Shown one piece after another: positions 7,087 through 61,750 of a stretch of DNA of 64,000 nt; the first letter of the stretch is position 1; each line of letters opens with the position of its first letter. The translations under genes were made by a program, and so were the position numbers. The stretch is from contig CBDDIJ010000003.1 in assembly GCA_965228855.1 (NCBI GenBank), forward strand, positions 2,272,001 to 2,336,000, given 5' to 3'. This DNA comes from Candidatus Obscuribacterales bacterium. Lineage in GTDB: Bacteria; Cyanobacteriota; Vampirovibrionia; Obscuribacterales; Obscuribacteraceae. A model generated the notes under the pieces. It saw only the letters and a program-made list of their open reading frames with translations, was not told the DNA's origin and did no database searches.

Positions 7087-7749
7087 CTAAATCAAACCTT
7101 CACGCATGGCTTTGACTGCGGCTTGTGTACGATCGGACACGGCCAGCTTCTCCATGATGTGTCGCATGTGAGTCTTGACAGTCTCGACGCTTAAAACGAG
7201 CTTGTCTGCAATTTCTTGATTGGTAGACCCATCTACGACCAACCGCAATACATCCAGTTCGCGAGATGAAAGTGTAGAGGCTGGGTTTGCTTTTTCATCC
7301 TCTCGGTCTTTGCCACCCGTTCCGATAGAACGCAATACTCGACCTGCAATTCCAGGATCAAGCCAGGCAACTCCCTCAGCAACGGCCTTGATTGCCATAA
7401 CCAATTGCTGTGACGGCGCTTCCTTCAAGCAGTAGCCATCGGCACCTGCAGAGAGCGCAGCAAATACATGACGGTCGTCATCGTGCGAAGTCAACATTAT
7501 GATTCGCTGGTCGGGACTGTCGGTCTTGATCTGTTTAGTCGCCTCAATCCCATTGAGAACCGGAAGTCCAATGTCCATTAACACCACGTTGGGTTTCAAT
7601 GCCAGAGCAGTTGCAACCGCTTCTTGACCATCCTGAGCAACTCCAAGAACCTTGATTCCGTAGTTTGCCTCAAGAATTACCTTGAGACCTACTCGCGCAA
7701 TCTCCTGGTCCTCGACAATCACAACTGATATGCCAGTATCTTCGACCAT
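7087..7749 (-). CDS. NarL/LuxR-family response regulator
   Basis: REC domain (IVED, LMDIGLP, MLTS, YCLK) plus LuxR HTH (LSSRELDVLRLV..G.TNQEIA..L.LSVETVKTH). Confidence 0.95.
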   Translation of the reverse strand: MVEDTGISVVIVEDQEIARVGLKVILEANYGIKVLGVAQDGQEAVATALALKPNVVLMDIGLPVLNGIEATKQIKTDSPDQRIIMLTSHDDDRHVFAALSAGADGYCLKEAPSQQLVMAIKAVAEGVAWLDPGIAGRVLRSIGTGGKDREDEKANPASTLSSRELDVLRLVVDGSTNQEIADKLVLSVETVKTHMRHIMEKLAVSDRTQAAVKAMREGLI

Positions 7750-16228: not shown

Positions 16229-17608
16229 TTGACCGCAAGTCCTGACAGACCGAGGAACGCGCGTAACACTGGCAGCAGTGTCGATACATCGTTGCGCGCG
16301 GTTGAAGCGCTAACAGTCGTCCAGACACAGGACGTCGCACTGGAGATGCCTTCAGATCGAACAGTCGAGAGAAAGCGTACCGGTGCTCGAGACCGGATTC
16401 AAAAGCTCTCGTTTCTTAACCTTTCATCTTTCGTTGCCACAACAACCGCGGATATTTTCTCAATTCTCGCAGTCTCACCGTTTGTGTTATTTACGGGTCC
16501 GGATCAAACCGATACCGCATTCGGTATCATTGTTCCCGTCACGATTCTCTGCTTGGCACCGTTGATCGGCGCAACTCTCGCGGCAAAACTTCAGCCTTCG
16601 TTCCTGGCTCTATCTTCATGCGGAGCTCGCCTGGTCATAGCGTCTTCACTTTTCGGGAACCTTGGTGGAGTGCAGATGACCGCCAACACAATTTTTTTAA
16701 GTATCGCGTTTATCTGGGGACTTCGCCTTCAGGAAGTATCCGCATCTCCATTGGACAAGACAAAAACAGGAAGAATTTTTCTTTACACATACCCGCTTCT
16801 GGCACTATTGGCGGTGCTCAAATTTTTTGAGCAACTGCAGCCATCATTCATGCCGACTGCATTATCTCTTTATGCGGTCGGTTTAGTTTTACTGGGATTG
16901 GATCAAATTATCGCGCGGATAAGAACCACGGGTAATACCGTACAGAATGATCTGAGCAATCAATCTGATACAACTGCAGATGCCGAAAATAACAAAACAG
17001 TCCAGACGGCAGGGAAGAAAGCGTTCACCACAGAGGTGTACGAAGTATTGCTTTCAGTCATGGCAGCCGTTCTACCGGTGGCTTCCGTGATTCTAGTGAT
17101 AACAGATCAGGGACTTCCGGCACCAATGCTCCGATACGACGTGCTAGCCAGTCTCGCCGGTTTCAGTATCGGAGCCGTGGCAACAGCGATAATAAGTCAA
17201 AAGTACTGGTTTAAAATTACGCATTTGCACATGGCATTTGTTGGTTTTCTGGGCATCCTTCTAATTTCGCGGACCTCGATTCTTGCTTTATCCGCTCTGC
17301 TTTTCACAAGCGTCATCGCAGGTGCCATCACTATGACCGTGAACCAAACGCGGTGGCAAAAGCCAGTGACACTATCATTGCTCGTGCTGGCTGCCTATTT
17401 TTCATATCTCTATCTCACACCTTTTCAGAGCACGTGGATGCCAATCCACGCACTGCGAATGCTGGTTGGAAACATGCTAATTGTTTCAGTCGCTGCGTTA
17501 TTCGTCTCGACCAGGGGACGAGCCACTATTATCGCTCTGGTCAGGAAGATATCGCGCGCGAAAAACAGTGGTGGCGCATTCAATACCAGCTCCGACCGGG
17601 GCATTTGA
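16229..17608 (+). CDS. Polytopic membrane protein, MFS-like topology
   Basis: About 12 hydrophobic segments in two halves separated by a hydrophilic loop. No family motif recognised. Confidence 0.5.
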   Translation: MTASPDRPRNARNTGSSVDTSLRAVEALTVVQTQDVALEMPSDRTVERKRTGARDRIQKLSFLNLSSFVATTTADIFSILAVSPFVLFTGPDQTDTAFGIIVPVTILCLAPLIGATLAAKLQPSFLALSSCGARLVIASSLFGNLGGVQMTANTIFLSIAFIWGLRLQEVSASPLDKTKTGRIFLYTYPLLALLAVLKFFEQLQPSFMPTALSLYAVGLVLLGLDQIIARIRTTGNTVQNDLSNQSDTTADAENNKTVQTAGKKAFTTEVYEVLLSVMAAVLPVASVILVITDQGLPAPMLRYDVLASLAGFSIGAVATAIISQKYWFKITHLHMAFVGFLGILLISRTSILALSALLFTSVIAGAITMTVNQTRWQKPVTLSLLVLAAYFSYLYLTPFQSTWMPIHALRMLVGNMLIVSVAALFVSTRGRATIIALVRKISRAKNSGGAFNTSSDRGI

Positions 17609-22894: not shown

Positions 22895-25624
22895 ATGCTC
22901 AAACCACGAAAGATCCGTGATCAAAAAGGGGCTGCAGTGACTGGACTCGTCATTGCGCTTATGTTCTTCATACTCATGGCTGGCTTGTTCGCTTTTGACG
23001 CCAGCCGAGTTCAGATGGCCCAACGGGAATTGACGGCAACTTGCGACGCCGCGGCTCTTGCTGGAACAGCCATGTTGACGAGTTATGACGTAAGTAACGA
23101 CACAGGCCCACCCGCTTCAACGCAGCCGGCAGGAAGCAAACTGCTGGATGCGCAAAACAACTCTGGTGCTTATTCGTACAACATGTTCCTGATGGGCAAC
23201 GTGCTTGGAAAGTGGATTCGTCCGCAGACCGCGCTCGTATCCACAGTCGGACAATTGGGCACGACAACCGATGGCGAAGTCAAAGTTTGTATCGGTCTCG
23301 TCGACCCATTGAATGGATATTCATCGGTACCACCTGTGATACCAGGTAACGCAGCAGGCACCGCGATTGGTGTATACGCAGGGTATGGATATCACCCGGC
23401 GTTTATCTCATTTTTCGGTGTTGGTAACGTTGGTATCAGAGCATCATCGGTCGGCGGCTTGCCGCAGGTCGACGCGGTTCTCGTACTCGACCTTTCCGGA
23501 TCGATGGACGATCTGACGCCGGTAACGCTGGTGAAGCGTTATTGGGATGCGCACCGCGGTGCCAACATGCAGGTATCAACAGCCTACAATGTCACCCCTG
23601 GATACACCACTGCAGCTTACACGCAGCTGAGTACTTCAGGCGGTGTTCCGTCTCAAGTTGTCTATGATGAGCCGGACCCGAACAGAGGCTACAACGGTCC
23701 AGCCACCGACAACAGAGGTTGGACAGACGAGCGACACGTCGCCACTCCCCTGATTAACACCATGATGTCTGGCAACAGTGCATCACCTTACACGCATACA
23801 AATCCTCCAACTTATGCCACCGACCTGACGACTGCCGATCTGGCGTCACAATCAACCGGGGCAAGTTTGGTAAACGGCACGCCCGAGAAGAACGGTAGTC
23901 CCGATAATATTTTCAATCCGGACTTCGATGAGTTTCAGGGGCATGGCTGCGTGACCTATCTAGAGACCAGACACCCGAATGCAAACCAGAGCATTATCGA
24001 GTACGTCGGTCTGGACACAGCGACTTATCTGACCGGTACGTCGTTGAACGCACTTCCTCCGCAGAACCTCGGCTTCTCGGAGAAAGGGACTGTGTTGTCT
24101 GGTGACTCCACGATTGTTTTCAAAAACTATTTGAGACATTCGCCGGACAAAAATGACTACAACAGCGCTCCCGGTAACTGCCCCCTGATTAAGTCGGGAG
24201 TCGGGTCCGGAGTACAGACGATGTCCGGCTTCGGCTGGGTGACCTCAGGCGGCAGATGTTCGCCTTACAAGAACTACCTGACTGACCACCTTCACTATCC
24301 TCTGGCTCCAGCCAGCGGCATGGTCGGTGCGACGCTCAAGCCGCCCTACAATCACAGCGTTATCTATACGGATCTCGTTGTAAACTTCGGCGCTCCAACC
24401 AACGGTCAGAAGCCGATTCAACCGGTTTGGGGACCAAACATATTCCAGGCCGTCAACTATACATTCGGCGACTCGAGTGTTGAGGACGACTCTGTAATTC
24501 AGGGCAACTCATATAGTTTCCCGAACATCGCCGTGCTCGTTGAAGCGTCCAGAGGCAACCTTGATTCACCTGGAACAGGCAGCACAGGCAACTTCGATTC
24601 GACGGCGCTGCACAGAGGTTACGACCTCCGCGGCGGAGAAGGCACGTATCAGGCGTACTACTCCCCCAGTCTCACCGGGATGAATACGAACGCCGGACTC
24701 GTCCAACCTCAAGTGGGCTATCAACGAGCCTATCAACGACTGGCAATGTGGTATTCACAGCCAATCGCAACCACGCTAGATTCATGCGACCAGGCATTCT
24801 TCCAACGTCTGGCGGCTCTTACAGATTGCCGTTTCGGTCTCGTTGGATTCTCCGATCGCTGGACTCTCAGCGGCAACCCTGCTAACAGCGTTGCTTCAGC
24901 AAATACAGGTGTGTTCGGTTCATCCGCAAACTACACCGCAAGCGGTCCATCCGCTAACAGCTACTACTACGACATCAGCTTCACTGGCGTCGTGAACACA
25001 ACTCACGTCTGGGACGGACGGATCGGTCCCTCTGATGCATCTTGTGCGGTTCGACACGAATGTCGAGTGGACCAGAGCGCAGGCGGAGGTACGGGACAGG
25101 GGTTCAGGCTTCCCCGATTCCCACTTAACTCAAGCTTGAATAAGGCCGCATGTTTGCGAAACATGCAAAAGGGTTCTCCTTCCGGATCAACCTGGGCCTG
25201 GTCTAATCCGGACCACGGGGACGGACTGTACAACGGTCGACCGCTTAACGGCACAATGTGCTCAGAGGCGCTCGAAACAGCCCGACTCGCATTCCAAACA
25301 GCGCCGTACTCGATACGGCCCGGAAGTAAGCGCGCCATCATCTTCTTCACAGATGGTGTGCCGGTTCCACCTACTGAGGCAGGTCCTAGCGGCAACACAG
25401 CCGACGCTTGCCAGACAGACGGTATAGCCATCTTCTCGATTGGCTTGAACATGCTAGGAAATGGAGACCTTACAAACCAGCAAACTGCATTCCTCGGAAA
25501 CAGCAGTGGCGGTCTGTCTGGTAGAGCCAAGAACGGCGGTCGATTCTTCATGTGTAATGATGTGACCCAGGTTCAACAGGCGTTCTCCTCGATCGCACGC
25601 CGTCTGACGCAATCTCAGAAATAA
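22895..25624 (+). CDS. TadG-like pilin/adhesin with a split vWA domain
   Basis: RDQKG|AAV leader; FAFD.SR......REL...CDAAALAG (TadG N-terminus); MIDAS LVLDLSGSM; C-terminal GLVGFS, IIFFTDG, IFSIG, AF..IAR. Confidence 0.85.
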   Translation: MLKPRKIRDQKGAAVTGLVIALMFFILMAGLFAFDASRVQMAQRELTATCDAAALAGTAMLTSYDVSNDTGPPASTQPAGSKLLDAQNNSGAYSYNMFLMGNVLGKWIRPQTALVSTVGQLGTTTDGEVKVCIGLVDPLNGYSSVPPVIPGNAAGTAIGVYAGYGYHPAFISFFGVGNVGIRASSVGGLPQVDAVLVLDLSGSMDDLTPVTLVKRYWDAHRGANMQVSTAYNVTPGYTTAAYTQLSTSGGVPSQVVYDEPDPNRGYNGPATDNRGWTDERHVATPLINTMMSGNSASPYTHTNPPTYATDLTTADLASQSTGASLVNGTPEKNGSPDNIFNPDFDEFQGHGCVTYLETRHPNANQSIIEYVGLDTATYLTGTSLNALPPQNLGFSEKGTVLSGDSTIVFKNYLRHSPDKNDYNSAPGNCPLIKSGVGSGVQTMSGFGWVTSGGRCSPYKNYLTDHLHYPLAPASGMVGATLKPPYNHSVIYTDLVVNFGAPTNGQKPIQPVWGPNIFQAVNYTFGDSSVEDDSVIQGNSYSFPNIAVLVEASRGNLDSPGTGSTGNFDSTALHRGYDLRGGEGTYQAYYSPSLTGMNTNAGLVQPQVGYQRAYQRLAMWYSQPIATTLDSCDQAFFQRLAALTDCRFGLVGFSDRWTLSGNPANSVASANTGVFGSSANYTASGPSANSYYYDISFTGVVNTTHVWDGRIGPSDASCAVRHECRVDQSAGGGTGQGFRLPRFPLNSSLNKAACLRNMQKGSPSGSTWAWSNPDHGDGLYNGRPLNGTMCSEALETARLAFQTAPYSIRPGSKRAIIFFTDGVPVPPTEAGPSGNTADACQTDGIAIFSIGLNMLGNGDLTNQQTAFLGNSSGGLSGRAKNGGRFFMCNDVTQVQQAFSSIARRLTQSQK

Positions 25625-25934: not shown

Positions 25935-28520
25935 GTGAATAACCAAAATCAGCGTCCAAACAGAAGAAAGAAAAATCTTCTGAAGCGCTTGAAAGGTATC
26001 ACCGCTATTGAACTCGCGGCAATCGTGTCGATTCTCATCGTCATTTGCGCCCTGACATTCAATATATGTATTCTCATATTCTCTGCGGATATGTGCGACC
26101 GGGCTTGCAGAGACTGCGCCCGAGCCGCCGGACAAATGTCCACTCCGAAGGAAGCGGTCGACGCCATGAACGCGTGTTTGCTGCATCACAAGACCTCAGG
26201 TGGTTTTGTGATTACGTCATTCAATGCAGAGCTTCTCGTCTACGAGGACTACATCGATCACAGTAACGATCCGAATCCTCCGGGTCCGCCTGCGATGCCA
26301 CCTCCGAACTCTTCTTACAATACCCAGACAACTACAGCGGATCCGCAAGTTCTTGCAGACCCGCTTCACCGTGTTCCGGCTCCGGTACTCGGTGGTTGCC
26401 CTGGTCCATTCGTAATGGTCCGGACAAATCTGACATCGCGGATTCCGGCACCGATCTTCTTTTTCGGTGCTCACTTCCAGGGCAATAGCGGAAACTTGAT
26501 GGACTTTTCGAGTGTGTACACGTTCCCAATTACGAACACACTCGGACCTCTTGCTGTAGCGCAAACCGGCTCCGACCCTAACCCGGGCGGACCGACCTCT
26601 ACAGGTACTACTGAACCCGTTATTGGTCAAACCACTTCCAATCCACAGGCCGGTCCTTCCGGTCCGTTGGGACCAGGCGGTCCTGGCGGTCCAGTAGGTC
26701 CCGGTGGTCCTCTAGGTCCTGGCGGTCCTAACGGTCCTGGCGGACCTCAAGGTCCTGGTGGACCTCAAGGTCCCGGCGGTCCTGAAGGTCCCGGCGGTCC
26801 TGGTGGTCCCCAAGGTCCTGGCGGTCCTGGTGGTCCCGGCGGTCCTGAAGGTCCCGGCGGTCCGGCTGGTCCTGGTGGACCTGGCGGTCCTGGCGGTCCT
26901 GAAGGTCCCGGTGGTCCCGGTGGTCCTGCCGGTCCCGGCGGTCCTGGTGGTCCTCTCGGTCCTGGTGGTCCTTCCGGTCCACTCGGTCCTGGCGGTCCCT
27001 TAGGTCCTGGCGGTCCTGGTGGTCCTGCTGGTCCTGGCGGTCCTAGCGGTCCTGGCGGTCCTGCCGGCCCCGGTGGTCCTAAAGGTCCTGAAGGACCTGG
27101 CGGTCCCGGTGGTCCTGGTGGTCCGGCCGGTCCTGGTGGTCCTAGCGGTCCTGGCGGTCCTGGTGGTCCGAAGGGTCCTGGCGGTCCTGGTGGACCGAAA
27201 GGTCCTGGCGGTCCTAAGGGTCCTAGTGGTCCCGGCGGTCCTGGTGGTCCTAAGGGTCCTGCCGGTCCTGGCGGTCCTTCCGGTCCTGGTGGTCCTAAGG
27301 GTCCTGGTGGACCTGGTGGTCCTTCCGGTCCTGGCGGTCCCGGCGGTCCTGGCGGTCCTGCTGGTCCTGGCGGTCCTTCCGGTCCTGGCGGTCCTGCTGG
27401 TCCTGGTGGTCCTTCCGGTCCTGGTGGACCTGGCGGTCCTTCCGGTCCTGGCGGTCCCGGCGGTCCTGGTGGTCCGAAGGGTCCTGGCGGTCCTTCCGGT
27501 CCCGGTGGTCCCGGTGGTCCTGGCGGTCCTGTAGGTCCCAATGGACCTAGCGGTCCCGGTGGTCCTGGCGGTCCTAAGGGTCCTGGTGGTCCTTCCGGTC
27601 CTGGCGGTCCTTCCGGTCCTGGCGGTCCTTCCGGTCCTGGTGGTCCTTCCGGTCCTGGTGGACCTGGCGGTCCTAAGGGTCCTGGTGGTCCTTCCGGTCC
27701 TGGCGGTCCTTCCGGTCCTGGCGGTCCTTCCGGTCCTGGTGGTCCTTCCGGTCCTGGTGGTCCGAAGGGTCCTAGCGGTCCCGGTGGTCCCGGCGGTCCT
27801 GGTGGCCCGAGCGGTCCTGGTGGTCCCGGCGGTCCTAAAGGTCCTTCCGGCCCTGGTGGTCCTGGCGGTCCTAAGGGTCCTGGTGGTCCTGGCGGTCCTA
27901 AGGGTCCTGGCGGTCCTAAAGGTCCTTCCGGTCCTGGCGGTCCTTCCGGCCCTGGCGGTCCTAAGGGTCCTGGTGGTCCTTCCGGCCCTGGTGGTCCTGG
28001 CGGTCCTAAGGGTCCTGGTGGTCCTTCCGGTCCTGGTGGTCCTTCCGGTCCTGGTGGTCCTTCCGGTCCTGGTGGTCCTTCCGGTCCTGGTGGTCCTTCC
28101 GGCCCTGGTGGTCCTTCCGGTCCTGGTGGTCCTGGTGGTCCTAGCGGCCCTGGTGGTCCTGGCGGTCCTAAGGGTCCTAGCGGTCCTGGTGGTCCTTCCG
28201 GCCCTGGTGGTCCTAAAGGTCCTAGCGGTCCTGGTGGTCCAAGCGGTCCTGGCGGTCCTTCCGGCCCTGGTGGTCCAAGCGGTCCTGGTGGTCCAAGTGG
28301 TCCTGGCGGTCCTTCCGGTCCTGGTGGACCTGGTGGTCCTGCCGGTCCTGGTGGTCCTGCCGGTCCTGGCGGTCCCGGTGGTCCCGGTGGTCCAAGCGGT
28401 CCTGCTGGTCCTGCAGGTCCAATGGGTCCCGGTGGTCCTCTCGGTCCTGCTGGTCCTCTCGGCCCTGGTGGCCCTGGTGGAGCAGCTGGTCCTGCGGGAA
28501 GTACCGCGCCAATCGGATAA
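25935..28520 (+). CDS. TadE-like pilin with a C-terminal collagen-like (Gly-Pro-X)n tail
   Basis: GGAGG SD before [12 protein letters not shown] class III signal; hydrophobic helix; [12 protein letters not shown] (TadE); then Gly-X-Y repeats from residue 240. Confidence 0.85.
26652..28505 (+). repeat. 9-bp-period coding repeat (GGY CCN NNN), 206 Gly-X-Y triplets
   Basis: 1854 nt with Gly at every third residue, X = Pro in all but two triplets near the end, Y = mainly G, S, K, A, with some E, L, Q. Confidence 0.95.
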
Positions 28521-33734: not shown

Positions 33735-35399
33735 TTAAGGCTTTGGCGCATCCGTTTTCAACTTATAGCAAACAAGAGCGGTTCTGAATCCGTAGTAGTC
33801 GAAGTTCGGCTGCGCATCGCTGTCCGGCCACTCGGCGTAGGCATACTCCTCGTACATGCTGTCGATCGTTTCCAAAACCTTGTGTTCCTTCAAGATGTCC
33901 CCAAGACTTTCGCGCTCGATCATAATCATCTTCGGCTTGACCGTTTTTATATCCGCTATCAAACGCTCATACATCCGAAATTGCAACCCCGTGTACTTTT
34001 CGGCGTTGGCATTATCGCGCTCCATCAACAAGCGCGACATGCGAATCGGGTAACCGGTGAGCAAATATGTCGCTGGTTTGCGATTGAACTGAATCATGAG
34101 CGGATACGCGGGTCTGACCCTGTCGTTCAAAATGAGAACCTTGTCGCCCGGCTTGGATTCTGCCTCGAGGCGAGTCGAGAATGCCGACTCCTCGTTCCAA
34201 AAATATGTTCCTGAGTAACCGTACGCTTCCAGGTTTTTCACATCATCATGATTGGTGGTGCTCATGTATGTGAAACAAACCGCGCCAACTCCGGCGCAGA
34301 CAGCCGCGATAATCGGCGTGAATAGCTTCGCTCCAAGTGCTCTCACATTTACTATCGAGTTGACTGCTACTGAAATCATGAGCGCTAAGGTCAGAAACGA
34401 CCCGTAAACCATAGGAAGCATTTGCGCAAGCATCGACTTCCCGGTAATGACGAAGGTACCGAAGCCGACAATCGAGAAGGCAATAAACAAAGGAATCAGC
34501 GAGCAGCGACGGCGCAAGCCCAGAGCGACAGAAGAGACCAGCATCATGAAATAGACTATGTTGCGATAATCGGGAGTTTTATTAACCCACCACAATCGTT
34601 CATCAAAAGTGACGTAATCACATACCACCATTGGCAGTGCGTAGTTGAAATAGATGTTGGAATAGTCCCTGCTGCAAAAAACAAAATGTAAGAGATAGAG
34701 GAAAATGATTACGAGCGCTGCACGCACTTCCATCGACATTGGCGGAGCAAGCCTATGCTTGGCGGCACAGAAGTATACCTCCATCAACAAAGCTATGATC
34801 AGGAATAAAGGGTCAAGGACAATACCGATACCACCTACGATACCAGCAATTAACGTTAGCTTCGCGTCCTTCGGCTGATTCGTCCAGGAGAGCCAGCGGG
34901 TTATGAGAAACGGGAGATACATCAGGAGAAACAAATGCTCCCGCTGACCAAACTCTCTGATCATGATCAGGTTTAGCAAGACGCAGCCAATGATGAGAGC
35001 CGGCATGTGGGCCTGCTCTCTAGACTTCTGCTGAAACAGGATCAGGGAAATTAGGGCACAAGAACCAACAGCAAGAACGAATACGAAAGTGTGAAATACA
35101 ACTACCGGATGTATGGCTGGAACCAATTTGCAAAACAGCGCGGGAATAGCGCACAGATACATGAGGGACGGGGCCGATACTTCCATGAAATCAATAAACG
35201 GAATTTTTCCGTCGACGATCAGCATTCCGCATTGCAAAGCAAGCGCGGCTTCGGCCGCAATGCGCAATCCAAACATTTGAAGTTGCGCCAACAGTGCGAC
35301 GAAGATAGCGGCAACAACAATTATCGTGTTCGCTCTCGATTGATACGAAGCAATCGTTTTCACTCTAGCTGCTCGTTCCAGTAAAAGCATAGCCCTCAT
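33735..35399 (-). CDS. GT-C-like (ArnT/PMT-type) integral membrane glycosyltransferase homolog, degenerate motifs
   Basis: Paralog of 35396-37039: GKIPFIDFME, EFGQREH, many TM segments, soluble C-terminal domain. Confidence 0.55.
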   Translation of the reverse strand: MRAMLLLERAARVKTIASYQSRANTIIVVAAIFVALLAQLQMFGLRIAAEAALALQCGMLIVDGKIPFIDFMEVSAPSLMYLCAIPALFCKLVPAIHPVVVFHTFVFVLAVGSCALISLILFQQKSREQAHMPALIIGCVLLNLIMIREFGQREHLFLLMYLPFLITRWLSWTNQPKDAKLTLIAGIVGGIGIVLDPLFLIIALLMEVYFCAAKHRLAPPMSMEVRAALVIIFLYLLHFVFCSRDYSNIYFNYALPMVVCDYVTFDERLWWVNKTPDYRNIVYFMMLVSSVALGLRRRCSLIPLFIAFSIVGFGTFVITGKSMLAQMLPMVYGSFLTLALMISVAVNSIVNVRALGAKLFTPIIAAVCAGVGAVCFTYMSTTNHDDVKNLEAYGYSGTYFWNEESAFSTRLEAESKPGDKVLILNDRVRPAYPLMIQFNRKPATYLLTGYPIRMSRLLMERDNANAEKYTGLQFRMYERLIADIKTVKPKMIMIERESLGDILKEHKVLETIDSMYEEYAYAEWPDSDAQPNFDYYGFRTALVCYKLKTDAPKP

Positions 35400-37039
35400 T
35401 TTCCGGGTTTGCGCCGGAAGGTGCGAAAGTTTTCAATCTGCTCGAGTTCATCATAGTCAGCCGACAGGTATTTGGAAACGAATTTGTACGGCTCGTCAAA
35501 ATAGTCCGGTCCCTTTTGCATGAAGATAAATCGCGGTTTGTTTTTCTGAATATCTTCTGCATATTCATTGACGATTCTCGGCATCTGGGAAGACAAATTA
35601 TCGTTGTGCGGCGAATGAGGAAGAATGTCTTTGATGTACGACAGAACCGAAAGAATTACCATATGGAGATGCCTGGAACCCGGCTCGAAGCGGAGCTGAG
35701 TAAGCCATGGATACCCCGGTGATACCGCATTTGACATCACAATCACTTTGTCACCCAGCTTGTATCCATCAAGCACGAGCGACGTGTAAGGCGAGTGAAT
35801 GTCTGCCCAGGGCGACGAACCCTGGTAGCCGATGGTTTTTAAATCGAAGTGCCTGGGGTCTTCGACAACGATCTTATAGTCCTCCTGACCATCGCGGAAT
35901 GCGATACCAAGGGCTGAAACAACTATCAATCCAAGGGTGAATCGATGCGAGATGGAAACTGGAGACTTGGAAAATCTGGTACTGAACTTAGTGACGGCGC
36001 TCTCCAACAGTTTCCAACCAAGAAAAATGAAGTAGCCGACTTCCATCGAGAACAGAATAAACGCACCTGCGTAAACCGGCTGGTCATGGTAGCCCCAGCC
36101 TTTGAATTGGATCAAATATGGAATTATGCTGCCGAACACAAATATCGTAAGAGGCAAAAGAAACGAGCAACGTTTCCTCAATGCCACAGCAAGCAAACAG
36201 GCGACCGTAGTGAGAAAGAATACGTCACGCTTTCCCGGGTCCGAAAACGACGCAGCCAGTGACGTATCCCAGTAGTGATATCCAAGCGCGAATGCAGGAA
36301 CGACGAACTTCCAGTAAGCGTCATTCATCGCTTTTGGAACGAACAGGAAGTGGGCGAGGTAGAGAACGCCGCCGCCAAAGCATGCAATATTCTCGGTCGA
36401 TACGAGCTTCCTCCAGCGCCATTTATCCAGCAGGAAATAAAGTTCCACAAGGAAAACGGGAATCAGAAAGTGCGGCTTAATGCAGATTCCAATTGCGGCC
36501 ATGAATCCGATAGCGGCAGACCAGACTTTCGACTGGACACCGCGTTCTTGCCAACGCAGAGTACGCAAGACCAGATATGGCATGTACAGCAAAACAAAAA
36601 TTTCCTCCCGCTGACCGAAGTCGTAGCGTAAGAAGAAGTTGAACAAAGTCAGTCCTACTAAAAACGGAAGAAAGAAAGGCGCCTCAGCTCGCTTTGCGTG
36701 CCGGAAAAACAGCATCAAGCAAGTGACGACGGAGTAAACGATGAGAACAACGAGGAAGTAGTTGAACGCCAGTGTGACCGGAATATTGAAGAGCTCGGAT
36801 CCGAATGCTGGAATTGTATAGAGATACCAGACCAGGGGAGGATTGGCGTCGCTCATATCCACGTAAGGAATCTTTCCTTGCGTGATCATCTGGGCGATCT
36901 GCAAGTGCAACGCAGGATCCCAGCCGATTCGCAAAGGATGAATAGCGACAGCAAAAGCCAGACGCGCTGTCATGATTGCGACGACAGCAATACAGCAGTA
37001 AAAGAGTCCTTTATCTTCTTTTAGAACGGATTGCTGCAA
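35396..37039 (-). CDS. GT-C-like (ArnT/PMT-type) integral membrane glycosyltransferase
   Basis: First-loop GWDP, GKIPYVDMSDANPPL, DFGQREE, IKPHF, many TM segments, soluble C-terminal domain. Confidence 0.65.
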   Translation of the reverse strand: MQQSVLKEDKGLFYCCIAVVAIMTARLAFAVAIHPLRIGWDPALHLQIAQMITQGKIPYVDMSDANPPLVWYLYTIPAFGSELFNIPVTLAFNYFLVVLIVYSVVTCLMLFFRHAKRAEAPFFLPFLVGLTLFNFFLRYDFGQREEIFVLLYMPYLVLRTLRWQERGVQSKVWSAAIGFMAAIGICIKPHFLIPVFLVELYFLLDKWRWRKLVSTENIACFGGGVLYLAHFLFVPKAMNDAYWKFVVPAFALGYHYWDTSLAASFSDPGKRDVFFLTTVACLLAVALRKRCSFLLPLTIFVFGSIIPYLIQFKGWGYHDQPVYAGAFILFSMEVGYFIFLGWKLLESAVTKFSTRFSKSPVSISHRFTLGLIVVSALGIAFRDGQEDYKIVVEDPRHFDLKTIGYQGSSPWADIHSPYTSLVLDGYKLGDKVIVMSNAVSPGYPWLTQLRFEPGSRHLHMVILSVLSYIKDILPHSPHNDNLSSQMPRIVNEYAEDIQKNKPRFIFMQKGPDYFDEPYKFVSKYLSADYDELEQIENFRTFRRKPGK

Positions 37040-57368: not shown

Positions 57369-59516
57369 ATGTTTCGTCCGACAATTTCTCACATAGGGTT
57401 GCTAGTCGTCTTCTTCTTACTGACGTCGGAGTTGCTATTTGTCGGCGTACTGAAATTTCAACTCGATGACCTCAATGCGAAACTCGCACAGGAAGAACGA
57501 AAGCGAGAAGTGGTCGAACTCCTGAACGACTCGGCAGCGCACTTGCAGAGCTTCTATGTGCAGATGATTCGTGATACCAACATCGTGCAATTTAAGGACA
57601 GACGAAGCCTGATCAAAGAGTTTGAAGTTCACAAGGTGGCAATTGAACGGAACTTCGAAGAGCTCCAGAAACTTCTGAAAGACCAACCCGAAGAGCTAAA
57701 AAAAATTAGTCGATATCAGCAAGAGAAGACGAGGGCGATGTCTACCCTGCTTGTTGGATTTACAGACAGACCGGACGTACTGTCGATAAAAAAAATCAGC
57801 AAAATAATGAAGTTCTTTCGGAAAGAATCTTTGCACTCCAGACTCCTGGCAAAATCATATAGCGCCGAAAACAAGTCAAATCCGGAGCAGGATATCGCGA
57901 ATGTTCAAAACCTGCTAATAGTCGGTCTCCTGATGAACCTCATCACAGCAGTGGCGGCTAGCTTTTTCTTCTGGAAATATGTGGCGAGACGCATCAACAT
58001 CGTCACCGAAAACATAGCGAGACTTTCTGCCGATGAACCTTTGCATGACCGGCTAGACGGGCAAGACGAGGTAGCAACAATCGACTCGGCTTTCCACTTT
58101 CTTAGCGATGAAATTTTAGCTGCCGCAGAGAGAGAGCGCTCGTTCGTAGAGAACTCTACAGATGTGATCTGTACAATCGACAGTAAAGGCTACTTCCGCG
58201 AAGTGAGCCCAGCAGCAAAACTGCAATGGGGTTATGACCCTGACGAACTCATCGACAGAGAAGCCACCAAAGTCCTTGGAATAAGAAACATCCCCGACAT
58301 ATTCACAGCAGACCCGTCGACAATCTCGAAAGACGCACACTTCGCGCTAGACGAGCGCGTGCGAAAAGCAGACGGATCATACATCGATACACTTTGGTCA
58401 GCCCATTGGTCTCCAACCGACGGATCACTTTTCTGTTTCGTTCGAGATCGGACGGACAGCAAACGTGCAAGTCGCCTCTTGGAGGAACAGGAAAATCAGG
58501 TGCGCAACGCCATTGAGAATCTGCCTGTCGGAATTCTGACGACTGATGTCGAAGGAGCAATACATCAATCCAATCAAATGGCCAGACGGCTTCTGGCGAA
58601 ACCTGACTTAGCAAATCAAAACGTCAACAAACTTCTCGTTGTCGAAGGCGCTAAACATAAAACAATCCAACAGGCTTTGACCGACCCGACTGTACCCACT
58701 CCGATCCGCTGCACCACCAGTAGTGCTGTAGGGAGTAAAACATATACCGACGTCTCTCTCGGCAAATCGACTACGCAGCTCTCAGATAGTCTGGTCATTA
58801 TTTTTGAAGACGCAAGCGAGCGAGTACGTCTTGAGGAAATCAAACAAAATTTCGTCTCACTCCTCGGCGAGAGCTTGCGCTCACCGCTTAACGAAGTGCG
58901 CACGATTGTTCGGGAAGAACTCCAGGTCAGCCAATCTGAATTGGCGAAAAAACGCATGACACGGATTTTGCCGAATATCGAAAGACTGCTCAAGTTGCTT
59001 GACGGGCTCCTGGACATTGAAGGTCTGGAACCCGGAAAGTTGGTGGGAATTCTCGAACCATGCGAGCTGGCAGATATCATCGAGCAATCAGTCAATGCAG
59101 TTTTCGATCATGCAGAGCAACAAAGCATATCGATTGACTATGCTCAAACAAAATGTACTGTCCTGGCGGACCCACAGCGATTGGTCCAGGTGATTATCAA
59201 CCTGCTGACCAATGCAATAAAATACTCGCCCGCCGGTTCACGAGTCTATATAGATACAGTTTCACTCGATGATTCAATAGAACTTCGCATCGTCGATGAA
59301 GGACGCGGATTGCCCGCCGAAATGCATGAGACGATTTTCCAGTCATATGTCCAAAGCCAGAAAGATGATGCCCGGCGTGGGAGCGGAACCGGGCTTGGTT
59401 TGGCGATCTGCAAACAGATCGTGCAGGCCCACAACGGCAGAATTGGAGTCCGGAGCGAAGTCGGCAAAGGAAGCACTTTCTGGATTGAACTTCCAATCGA
59501 GGGTGAGCGCGCATGA
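57369..59516 (+). CDS. TM-HAMP-PAS sensor kinase with intact ATPase domain but no phospho-acceptor His
   Basis: H-box reads FVSLLGESLRSPL. N box NLLTNAIKY, G1 DEGRG and G2 GTGLGL are intact. Confidence 0.88.
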   Translation: MFRPTISHIGLLVVFFLLTSELLFVGVLKFQLDDLNAKLAQEERKREVVELLNDSAAHLQSFYVQMIRDTNIVQFKDRRSLIKEFEVHKVAIERNFEELQKLLKDQPEELKKISRYQQEKTRAMSTLLVGFTDRPDVLSIKKISKIMKFFRKESLHSRLLAKSYSAENKSNPEQDIANVQNLLIVGLLMNLITAVAASFFFWKYVARRINIVTENIARLSADEPLHDRLDGQDEVATIDSAFHFLSDEILAAAERERSFVENSTDVICTIDSKGYFREVSPAAKLQWGYDPDELIDREATKVLGIRNIPDIFTADPSTISKDAHFALDERVRKADGSYIDTLWSAHWSPTDGSLFCFVRDRTDSKRASRLLEEQENQVRNAIENLPVGILTTDVEGAIHQSNQMARRLLAKPDLANQNVNKLLVVEGAKHKTIQQALTDPTVPTPIRCTTSSAVGSKTYTDVSLGKSTTQLSDSLVIIFEDASERVRLEEIKQNFVSLLGESLRSPLNEVRTIVREELQVSQSELAKKRMTRILPNIERLLKLLDGLLDIEGLEPGKLVGILEPCELADIIEQSVNAVFDHAEQQSISIDYAQTKCTVLADPQRLVQVIINLLTNAIKYSPAGSRVYIDTVSLDDSIELRIVDEGRGLPAEMHETIFQSYVQSQKDDARRGSGTGLGLAICKQIVQAHNGRIGVRSEVGKGSTFWIELPIEGERA

Positions 59517-61750
59517 GCACCCAGGACAACCAGTTGCGTCTTGATTTGACCAGGAAAGCCGTTCTTCTCTTTGCGGCAATCTTCATCGTGGAAGCTTTGT
59601 ATGTAGGCATTATTGCAAGCATGCTCTGGCAAACATCGAACAGCATTAAGAGGACTCAAGAATCCAGAGTGGTGGTTCAAGCCGTGGGAGAAGTCGCATA
59701 CGGGGCACAGGAGATAGTTGGGGAACTGCTCGAAGGATTTTTTAATGATGTGCTTCATCAGCCGCACAGACCGATCAAGATCTCTGCGGAGAAACGGCTG
59801 AAGATGATGGCGGACAATCTCGAAGAAGCACTTAAAAACGATAACTCACAAAAATCGATCGTCCGGGACATTAAGGAGATGTGCACAGATTCAGTACCAC
59901 CTCTGGTGAAAGATCTGAGGGAAGCAAACTGGGGCGATCCTGGCGATACAAGACGCTTCTCGATGATTCGGCTCGATGAAGTGAATGCAGATCTCATGCA
60001 CAGATTGGACGATATAACCAGCGTTTACGGCAAAGCTAAAGCAGATGCCGCGGCTGAACTTACATCACATACCAGCCTGTCCGCGACAACAGCAATTGTT
60101 CTCGGCTTTGTCGTAAATGCAGTTATCGCGCTCTTGCTCTATTTCGCGTTCATCAATGGAATCACCAGGCGTCTTTCAAAAATCGCGGAGGACATCTCGT
60201 TAGTAGCGAGCAAGAAGCAGCTACCCGCGACTGCTGCGAACCTCAAAGATTCGGCTGATGAAATCGATATGCTTGCTTACGAGATCAGGAAAATGTCGGA
60301 GAACTTCTCGGAAATTCAAAGTAAAGAGCGAACGCTTTTTGAAAACGTTCCAAGCATTATGTGCGCCATCAATGAGGACGGCCTAATTATGAGCGTAAGC
60401 CCTGGTAGCTCCGTTCTCTGGGGATATGATGCCGACGAGTTAGTTGGGAAACGAATGAGCGAGGTCTTTCACGATGCTGCGTTAGTTGAGGTAGCGCAAA
60501 AGTTGGAAGCGCTGTTCGAGGATGATGTCAACGAGATTGATTTCCAGGCAGCAGTCAGCACGAAAAAGCAGGAACGTCTGCAAGTGGCGTGGAAAGCGCG
60601 TCTTTCCGAAGACGGCACCGCCCTCCTGATTGGACACGATGTGACAGAAGAAGTAGAGGCACTCGATAGGATAAAGAACAGCGAGGAAGAGTTTAGAGCG
60701 ATAGTCGACAAAATGCCGATTTCGGTCGTCACGCTCGATGAGAACTATTCGATAACTTCAGTCAACGAAGCGACACAGGAGATGTTCAACACGCCGCCAC
60801 AGGCACTACTTGGGCGAAACATAGGCGCGCTCATCGCTGGCGCCACCACAAGCGGTGCCTCTGGAGCACAAGTTTTAGACCTTCTCTCATTGTCCGAAAA
60901 GAATCCGGTATCGCTGAACGTCGGTTACGATAAGGATTCAGTATTGCCGGTAGAAGTGAACACCAGCACTTACGTCAACGCGTACGCAAGAAAAACTTAC
61001 CTTGTAACATTGCAGGATATTTCTGTTCGCACAGAGATAGAAAGAGTCAAACAAGATTTTGTGGCAATGATCAGTCATGACTTACGGTCGCCGCTGACAG
61101 CCCTGTTCGGCACTTTGGAAACACTGGTTGAAACAACCGATGACAATCAGAATTCCGATAGCGCCGATAACGATTCGCCTCGTGAAAGCGAACCGGACAA
61201 GCCGTTGCTCAGGGCCAAAAACATCGTCTCCGATCTCGTCAATTTGATAAACGATTTTCTCGATCTCGAAAAGTTCGAAGCCGGGCGAGGTGTTTTGGAC
61301 CAGAGGAAAGAGCCGTTGCGAGACATTCTCAAAGAGACGATAGCCTCCATGCCAAGACTCGCAGGCGAACGAGTAACCACCTCTGCCTCGATTGAATCGC
61401 CAGTTCAAATAAAAATCGACCACGACCGTATGTTGTTTGCCCTGACAAACTTTCTGTCTACTGTTTTGCAATACTCAAGTGAGACTTCCAAAGTCAACGT
61501 GAGCGTTTTCAAAGATCAAAACAGTATCTCAGTGAGTTTCGCATGCCCGGAATTCGCCTTGCCCGAGTCTGTACGAAACTCATGCCTGTCGCGATATGAG
61601 TTTCAACCCGCAGCCAAAAATTCAATCCTGGATTCAAGCGGTCTGGCGCTTGCTCTATCGCGCGCGATAGTCCTGGCCCATGCAGGCAGCGTCACCTTTT
61701 CAGATGACCTGGGGACTCAAGCGATTATTATTCAAATTCCTACTGCCTGA
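59513..61750 (+). CDS. TM-HAMP-PAS sensor kinase with intact H-box but degenerate ATPase domain
   Basis: H-box [14 protein letters not shown] box reads [10 protein letters not shown], DxGxG is absent (SFACPEF), G2 reads SSGLAL. Confidence 0.85.

Follow-up and report, generated by a model that had tools for sequence, protein, structure and literature searches.

Reciprocal motif losses in two coupled kinase genes

We analysed a 64,000-nucleotide stretch of DNA from Candidatus Obscuribacterales bacterium (contig CBDDIJ010000003.1, positions 2,272,001 to 2,336,000; hereafter the window), in which two adjacent genes encode the paralogous membrane-bound histidine kinases P0001 and P0002. It is likely that these proteins act as a mixed pair with a single working site, because gene 1 lacks the phospho-His of the domain for dimerization and histidine phosphotransfer (DHp), and gene 2 lacks the ATP-binding motifs of the catalytic and ATP-binding (CA) domain. 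The features of the locus are given below in window coordinates, with DHp positions named relative to the phospho-His (H).

57369..59516, + strand: gene 1 (P0001, 715 amino acids); transmembrane (TM) helix, periplasmic four-helix (CHASE3/4HB-like) sensor, TM helix, HAMP-like region, PAS, PAS, His-less DHp domain and intact CA domain
57450..57911, + strand: periplasmic sensor of gene 1, CHASE3/4HB-like, approximately residues 28-181
58869..58871, + strand: GAG codon of gene 1, Glu501 where the phospho-His is expected (LLGESLRSP); no acidic residue at H+1 either (Ser502)
58983..58985, + strand: Arg539 in DHp helix 2 of gene 1, position H+41, aligned with WalK Arg431
59199..59225, + strand: intact N box of gene 1, NLLTNAIKY, with Asn611 and Asn615
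59295..59309, + strand: intact G1 box of gene 1, DEGRG
59385..59402, + strand: intact G2 box of gene 1, GTGLGL
59513..59516, + strand: ATGA start/stop overlap between gene 1 and gene 2
59513..61750, + strand: gene 2 (P0002, 745 amino acids); architecture as gene 1, DHp domain with His522, CA domain degenerate
59615..60094, + strand: periplasmic sensor of gene 2, CHASE3-like, approximately residues 35-194
61076..61078, + strand: CAT codon, His522 in the intact H box of gene 2 (MISHDLRSP), with Asp523 as the acidic H+1 residue
61271..61273, + strand: Lys587 of gene 2, position H+54, aligned with HK853 Arg314
61448..61474, + strand: degenerate N box of gene 2, NFLSTVLQY, with Thr650 in place of the Mg-binding Asn
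61634..61651, + strand: degenerate G2 box of gene 2, SSGLAL; CPEFA stands at the G1 position

The two proteins are 22% identical across 580 amino acids, and each has two predicted TM helices and two PAS stretches. Pfam matched P0001 to HATPase_c with 107 bits and gave no HisKA match at E ≤ 0.01; P0002 matched HisKA with 48.7 bits and HATPase_c with 21.6 bits, under the cut-off of 26.4. The His and acidic H+1 residue of a canonical class I HisKA domain are present in P0002 but not in P0001, whereas the N, G1, F and G2 boxes of a canonical CA domain are present in P0001 but not in P0002, which has no DxGxG. Residues 471-600 of P0001 contain a single other His, H581, which lies outside the H box. 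The DHp-CA core is homologous to those of HK853 and WalK (E 2e-13 for the P0002 core against HK853), and the top NCBIfam matches of both proteins were PnpS, WalK and PhoR, every one of them under its curated cut-off. P0001 is a predicted ATP-binding subunit and P0002 a predicted phospho-acceptor and response-regulator-docking subunit.

An initial annotation of the window had described two paralogous genes coupled by an ATGA overlap, with Glu in gene 1 at the position of the phospho-His in gene 2, and with N, G1 and G2 boxes intact in gene 1 and lost in gene 2; both open reading frames (ORFs), both codons and all of the quoted motifs are indeed present. Of the TM-HAMP-PAS-PAS-DHp-CA architecture that it assigned, the TM, PAS, DHp and CA parts hold, and the HAMP region is less certain, with a Pfam match in 2 of 10 family members of gene 1 and 1 of 10 of gene 2. 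CHASE3 was matched in 5 of 10 and 2 of 10 members, respectively, and the language-model neighbours of the periplasmic domains were CHASE3/four-helix sensors (score 0.94). The pair is not an assembly error, because contigs of two public runs, possibly the source of this DNA, span the whole stretch with zero differences and near-identical orthologs carry the same motifs.

Pairs and fusions elsewhere in Obscuribacterales

The initial annotation treated the pair as a one-off, which it is not: it is one of eight in the source genome (G000, 8.2 Mb) and belongs to a large recurrent family. Among the 108 kinase-core matches in this genome (106 by a second profile), eight genes bear the His and have a dead CA domain, and all eight overlap a gene that is His-less with an intact CA domain. 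Nine genes of the latter kind exist, the ninth being an unpaired member of another subfamily. Eight of the 12 adjacent same-strand kinase pairs are reciprocal, a number reached in 4 of 200,000 shuffles of the labels among paired genes, although four of the eight pairs are paralogs and the test overstates their independence. Four pairs have two PAS domains, as in the window (2-PAS pairs), two encode proteins of ~600-670 amino acids, and two encode proteins of ~480 amino acids with the His-bearing gene first.

Two more ATGA-coupled pairs of the same family in the source genome are intact in both genes (C2:2414976-2418676 and C3:2881627-2885222; L242 and L243). Intact ATGA-coupled pairs, sometimes two in a row, were also seen at L070, L082, L108, L113, L125, L143, L158 and L162. 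The upstream and the downstream members of such pairs fall into separate, old clades, and the pairs may therefore be heterodimers already, with both sites working. Other variants include an unpaired, doubly dead pseudokinase of ~800 amino acids without His or ATP motifs, found in two genera (C2:1273485-1275920 in the source genome and L290:1732-4098 in G057), and four source-genome kinases with the H box NAAHQ(L/F)RTP, in which Gln replaces the acidic H+1 residue (C2:1164401, C3:142062, C3:3071908 and C3:3443180).

Loci in relatives were drawn by H-box patterns blind to the state of the CA domain (79 genome and 78 metagenome loci). G002, G005, G006, G007, G015, G078 and G110 carry orthologous reciprocal pairs, and G003 carries one in reversed order. 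Where the neighbour of a CA-dead gene is visible, the His-less partner lies upstream, barring L036/L059, L279, L205 and L311. Another genus (G057) has at least six further pairs in the 50 of its 83 matching loci that were examined, three of them with the His-bearing gene first. When pooled and made distinct at <90% identity, 68 unfused adjacent pairs comprised 33 with both genes intact, 27 strictly reciprocal and 8 others (L036, L279, L311, L205 and four intact pairs with a variant H box); none had two His-less genes. Members of the 2-PAS family turned up in 29 of 35 other Obscuribacterales genomes, compared with 0 of 115 genomes elsewhere in the class, with 7 candidates scored per genome.

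Both genes are under purifying selection. The ratio of non-synonymous to synonymous substitution rates (dN/dS; Nei-Gojobori, window pair against an ortholog pair 94-97% identical) was 0.058 for gene 1 and 0.077 for gene 2; values were 0.04-0.12 for the other three 2-PAS pairs and 0.01-0.10 for the genes next to the pair. The His-less DHp domain of gene 1 has 14 synonymous and 0 non-synonymous changes, and dN/dS is 0.10 in the dead CA domain of gene 2. Decay of either gene is excluded. The initial annotation had proposed looking in relatives for the same reciprocal losses and for purifying selection on both genes, and both were found. Sensor and HAMP regions have dN/dS of 0.03 (gene 1) and 0.07 (gene 2); both are conserved, so both sensors probably matter, whether they provide two inputs or form a single composite binding site.

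In some relatives the two kinases are joined: a single ORF encodes two units, each of them complete (TM-sensor-TM-HAMP-(PAS)-DHp-CA), and four TM helices in total. Most of these ORFs (L297-L310 in G073, L177:2700-5690, L283:5678-8713, L284:1609-4572 and L075:1-2442) have one His-less and one ATP-site-dead unit, in either order. G073 has 14 fused ORFs in 20 regions, of which 13 are reciprocal by eye and one is nearly intact in both units; three His-bearing units in its reciprocal fusions retain the N-box Asn, with the other boxes altered. Among 70 pooled distinct fusions, which include a few unrelated two-core proteins, 58 are reciprocal, 4 are intact in both units and the remainder are intermediate. 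A profile search of 50%-identity representatives returned 135 new proteins, 123 of them with two cores, 78 strictly reciprocal and 12 intact in both units, although the query was built from fusions and the reciprocal share is therefore biased. Family members with an organism name are assigned to Obscuribacterales, to Melainabacteria or to a cyanobacterial bin that is unclassified. The CA domain of the His-bearing unit is entirely missing from L309, L310 and their relatives, leaving one CA domain in the protein. A phylum-wide search with the fused profile was uninformative (0 of 301 genomes, 3 candidates scored per genome, no positive control). In a 2010 survey of 15,704 non-hybrid kinases, 2 had two transmitter domains (PMC3018481).

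Fusions with both His residues and both ATP sites also exist (L301:1383-4376, P0024, P0025, P0027, P0120 and P0131); their first H box is drifting (HELKAP, K+54 lost), and they are possible intermediates. At L041:2993-7372 (G001), two intact 2-PAS kinase genes lie in the same frame of 1470 amino acids, separated by one TGA and a few bases, an arrangement one mutation away from fusion or fission.

A probably divided catalytic surface and its alternatives

We compared 23 His-less, 27 CA-dead and 115 intact sequences to see which residues each partner keeps. The His-bearing chain retains the outward face of DHp helix 1 (H-3, H-1, H, D+1, R+3 and T+7) together with K+54, and the His-less chain retains R+41 in helix 2 and all of the CA catalytic residues. 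Gln607 and Asn611, which activate the H+1 acid, are kept in gene 1 despite the loss of its own acid. Across 86 reciprocal units, Arg at H+41 was found in 80 His-less vs. 10 His-bearing chains, Lys or Arg at H+54 in 16 vs. 82, and Thr at H+7 in 5 vs. 50. The division recurred in 61 units outside the discovery set (56 vs. 5 for R+41 and 6 vs. 57 for K/R+54) and in 78 further fusions (58 vs. 12 and 11 vs. 63, respectively), many of these units being kin. In the kinase-competent state described for WalK, the CA domain contacts His391 and Glu392 through Gln506 and Asn510, and helix-2 Arg431 through a network of its own (PMC5633905). HK853 Arg314, with no subunit of origin stated, binds a sulfate on the His (PMC7005713). 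The conserved residues are split between the chains and therefore appear to make up one shared catalytic surface, as a mixed trans bundle requires. The local geometry of this surface is reported to be alike in cis and trans kinases, with handedness setting which chain supplies it (PMC3904827).

Overall, we estimate a probability of roughly 80% that P0001 and P0002 are an obligate heterodimeric kinase with one trans-acting site, at which protein 1 phosphorylates His522 of protein 2. The proposed complex is a single heterodimer in the membrane, in which the two DHp domains make a mixed four-helix bundle; protein 1, through its CA domain loaded with ATP, would phosphorylate His522 in trans, and protein 2, docking a response regulator on its helix 1, would pass the phosphate to a regulator, presumably of OmpR type, encoded elsewhere. 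The heterodimer put forward in the initial annotation, in which the mixture but neither homodimer would autophosphorylate (a prediction from the motifs), has gained partial support, having come through the orthologous pattern and purifying selection that it proposed as computational checks, and the single-chain forms and divided catalytic interface add to it. Its further suggestion, that the two sensors are integrated as an AND gate, is possible but unsupported, and we regard it as doubtful. In FasB/FasC, a streptococcal kinase pair considered below, the membrane region of the kinase-bearing partner was reported to be dispensable upon overexpression (PMC12675982). A single-sequence fold of the P0002 core reached a predicted local distance difference test score of 44 and was discarded.

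Several observations weigh against an obligate heterodimer acting in trans. The nearest solved relatives include HK853, WalK and VicK. HK853 acts in cis, and the intact family has the same spacing between the His and helix 2 as HK853, namely 51 residues. The spacings of ArcB and BarA are known to be alike. WalK (PMC5633905) and VicK (PMC3904827) also act in cis, and a cis-handed bundle would leave the mixed dimer inactive. However, relatedness and spacing alone cannot fix the direction, because ArcB acts in cis and BarA in trans (PMC4734776). The case for trans action is drawn solely from the pattern of conservation. Moreover, some loci deviate: gene 1 of L036/L059 keeps a His at the H position with Asn at H+1, the His-less partner at L279 has a degenerate G1 box, L205 is a CA-dead gene adjoining an intact kinase, the His-bearing partner at L311 retains most ATP motifs, and P0215 and a few other fusions appear dead in both units. 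The sequences counted are also kin, and the counts overstate the number of independent events. The DHp hairpin loop is a determinant of handedness in other kinases; in P0002 it contains a polar, low-complexity insertion (window 61138-61197) whose length differs among strains, with a 9-nucleotide insertion in run X1 and 748 vs. 745 amino acids in L051.

Alternatively, two homodimers (P0001:P0001 and P0002:P0002) might meet transiently, the CA domain of P0001 phosphorylating His522 across dimers as in CheA3/CheA4, with no mixed bundle. This route needs no change of handedness and is consistent with the cis-type nearest structures; split kinases exist, the DHp and CA domains of EnvZ were reported to function as separate polypeptides in vitro (PMC3591291), and fusion would raise the local concentration here too. 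We nevertheless consider it unlikely, since R(H+41) tracks the ATP-bearing chain and the helix-1 face tracks the His-bearing chain, which points to a composite surface within one bundle, and since both chains retain the full TM-HAMP-PAS-DHp spine with matched length and domain content. FasB and FasC, moreover, were reported to give no homodimers (PMC12675982).

A very improbable explanation is that P0002 serves as a phosphotransferase of the ChpT/Spo0B kind, or as a dedicated phosphatase, fed by other kinases, and P0001 as a DivL-like modulating pseudokinase, so that no phosphate passes from P0001-bound ATP to the His of P0002. A DHp domain with a degenerate CA domain is the ChpT/Spo0B architecture, P0002 retains H-D-x-R-S and the docking face, and the genome holds 148 receiver-containing ORFs. 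However, P0002 is a membrane receptor with a sensor and PAS domains rather than a soluble protein, and Pfam HPTransfase was matched in 1 of 10 P0002 family members, at E 0.06 only. Neither the near-perfect reciprocity in several lineages nor the complete retention of N611, Q607, R539, G1 and G2 in the His-less chain is predicted by this explanation. Still less probable is that the half-dead proteins mix with intact paralogous kinases so as to inhibit or rewire them, their pairing being incidental. Dozens of related intact kinases are available in the genome, and inhibition by heterodimer formation is known for RetS/GacS (PMC8498467), but the partners here are translationally coupled, co-inherited and often covalently fused, and lone half-dead genes are rare within the family. 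Independent decay of two redundant duplicates can be dismissed: an ortholog of a paralogous reciprocal pair (L039/L053, in G006) does have an internal TAA stop in its His-bearing gene, either a real break or an assembly error, but dN/dS against close orthologs, at ~0.04-0.12 in all eight genes that make up the four 2-PAS pairs, contradicts decay, frames are open across genera, and the complementarity is strict.

As the initial annotation noted, no response regulator adjoins the two kinase genes. The closest receiver protein, and the sole one in the window, is a NarL/LuxR-type regulator at 7087-7749, 49.6 kb from the pair, and is probably not the partner. Elsewhere in the genome there are 54 OmpR-size regulator candidates, and three of the eight pairs each have one OmpR-type regulator within 0.8 kb; the pair at C5:787192-791072 has its regulator in the same operon. 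At the positions of P0002 that we take to face the regulator, 6 of 7 match the paralogous His-bearing protein at C2:1694448, and the two pairs may share a regulator because these residues nearly match. The genes flanking the pair are an RDD gene (divergent) and ispH/lytB (convergent), and a scan for promoters and terminators gave counts at the level of shuffled sequence (3 vs. 4.2 and 7 vs. 6.4). The window also contains long ORFs without a Pfam match (16229-17608, 25935-28520 and 33735-37039) and one with only a Tad N-terminus and a weak VWA match (22895-25624).

Origins and relation to known systems

To place the pairs, a tree was built from the sensor, HAMP, PAS and DHp regions after removal of the H box and CA domain (425 columns, FastTree local supports); 50 of 86 pairs were retained after near-duplicates were dropped. 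Partners of a pair are each other's relatives in separate lineages: the 2-PAS family (support 0.94), C5:787192/789069 (0.99), L046 (0.94), C3:509244/510703 (0.88) and L164/L184 (0.92). L179 and L197 fall within a family of intact ATGA pairs, where their upstream genes group with the other upstream genes (1.0) and their downstream genes with the other downstream genes (0.98). The gene 1 and gene 2 trees of the 2-PAS family mirror each other, and therefore this pair has been inherited as a unit. Approximately unbiased (AU) tests on 68 sequences, with near-duplicates, fragments and two unrelated genes left out, rejected a single His-less clade and a single CA-dead clade (difference in log likelihood ~295, p<1e-50). 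With the kinase core only (FastTree-constrained trees, 3000 replicates), a single origin of the His-less genes was weakly rejected (AU p=0.024), and only one of seven groupings of another lineage with the 2-PAS family was rejected; part of the multiple-origin signal might be mimicked by swapping of cores or by gene conversion long ago. Five or six independent origins within Obscuribacterales are likely, although not proven.

An ordinary homodimeric kinase may have been duplicated in tandem, giving intact pairs with coupled translation whose products could mix; once one His had been lost, the opposite ATP site would have been free to degenerate, and the heterodimer would have been locked in. 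A neutral ratchet of complementary loss (PMC10888846) accounts for the many intact coupled pairs and for the intermediates no less well than an adaptive gate does.

Some partial likenesses are well known, among them the split kinase HK1/HK2-TcrA of Mycobacterium tuberculosis and the HisKA pseudokinases DivL and ChpT, which are not reciprocal partners of a paralog. The mechanism proposed for P0001/P0002 has one natural precedent, FasB/FasC of group A Streptococcus, co-transcribed membrane kinases that formed heterodimers and no homodimers in two-hybrid assays; FasC His246 was required and its kinase domain dispensable, the authors proposed that FasB phosphorylates His246, and a single response regulator is involved (PMC12675982). 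As in the window, adjacent coupled kinase genes carry the His on one partner and the needed ATP site on the other, and the CA-less His-bearing unit of the L309/L310 lineage resembles the functional FasC1-286 truncation. However, FasB/FasC are 6-TM proteins with a ComE-like regulator, whereas P0001 and P0002 are 2-TM, HisKA-type proteins with CHASE3-like sensors and PAS domains; no regulator is adjacent and those of sister pairs are of OmpR type, which places the window pair outside the FasB/FasC family. FasB also retains DHp histidines, unlike P0001, and cis action was not excluded for it. Finally, FasB/FasC is one locus, and the Obscuribacterales pairs recur as a family that includes intact intermediates as well as fusions in a single chain.

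In Rhodobacter sphaeroides, CheA3 and CheA4 carry ATP binding and the phospho-His on separate proteins, neither of which autophosphorylates alone (PMC3591291). These are class II kinases missing whole domains, whereas P0001 and P0002 are full-length paralogous receptors with sensors of their own, each keeping both domains, and their split consists of motif loss across a predicted shared DHp bundle; the CA domain is truly deleted in some fused relatives only. The same paper counted 1.7% potential split kinases by missing domains and not as reciprocal pairs. Complementation in trans between a His mutant and a G2 mutant of GacS (PMC8498467), and likewise between His and G-box mutants of BarA (PMC4734776), is exactly the chemistry predicted for P0001/P0002, although those were engineered mutants of one homodimeric protein and this is a natural gene pair. 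RetS/GacS offers a heteromeric DHp-DHp interface among HisKA proteins, as proposed here, but RetS inhibits a kinase that is active alone (PMC8498467). Outside signalling, Fcy1 was converted from a homomer to an obligate heteromer by complementary loss of function (PMC10888846). There too a homodimer was duplicated and each copy suffered one loss, making both genes necessary; that was a laboratory demonstration with a yeast enzyme, and here a natural series of intact, partly degenerate, fully degenerate and fused forms exists in signalling receptors. Pseudomonas putida YiaZ/PP_2664 was rejected as a precedent, as these proteins were reported also to form homodimers (bioRxiv 10.1101/2025.03.18.643695). 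The accessible text of two reviews (PMC12189002 and PMC12471899) mentions no reciprocal pair, and the top results of a full-text literature search, covering few subscription papers and no supplements, contained no reciprocal HisKA pairs, single-chain pseudo-dimeric kinases or such systems in Obscuribacterales. The concept of a reciprocal heterodimer is itself already published; the family stands out for its scale, its likely repeated origins and its single-chain fusions, the last two of which did not turn up in the literature searched.

Sensor histidine kinases are taught as homodimers. Heterodimers among them were called rare in a 2025 paper, yet dozens of natural pairs and more than 100 two-unit fused proteins in this family apparently divide the His and the ATP site between subunits. 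We think it likely that Obscuribacterales have repeatedly turned homodimeric kinases into asymmetric receptors with one His and one ATP site across two subunits, often fused as a four-TM single-chain pseudo-dimeric kinase and sometimes with one CA domain, and that the intact-to-fused forms are a replicated series from homodimer to obligate heterodimer, with two distinct sensors feeding one active site. The half-of-sites asymmetry of kinase crystal structures would be hard-wired in such receptors, so that either arm could be examined separately, and the single-chain forms solve the practical problem of producing defined heterodimers. The residues kept by each partner map catalytic vs. docking contacts and may predict cis or trans direction from sequence. 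Since these genes are annotated as ordinary or incomplete kinases, similar pairs may be overlooked elsewhere. For the family itself, the pairs and fusions provide replicated natural cases that could show whether neutral complementary loss or new signal integration gives rise to obligate heteromers.

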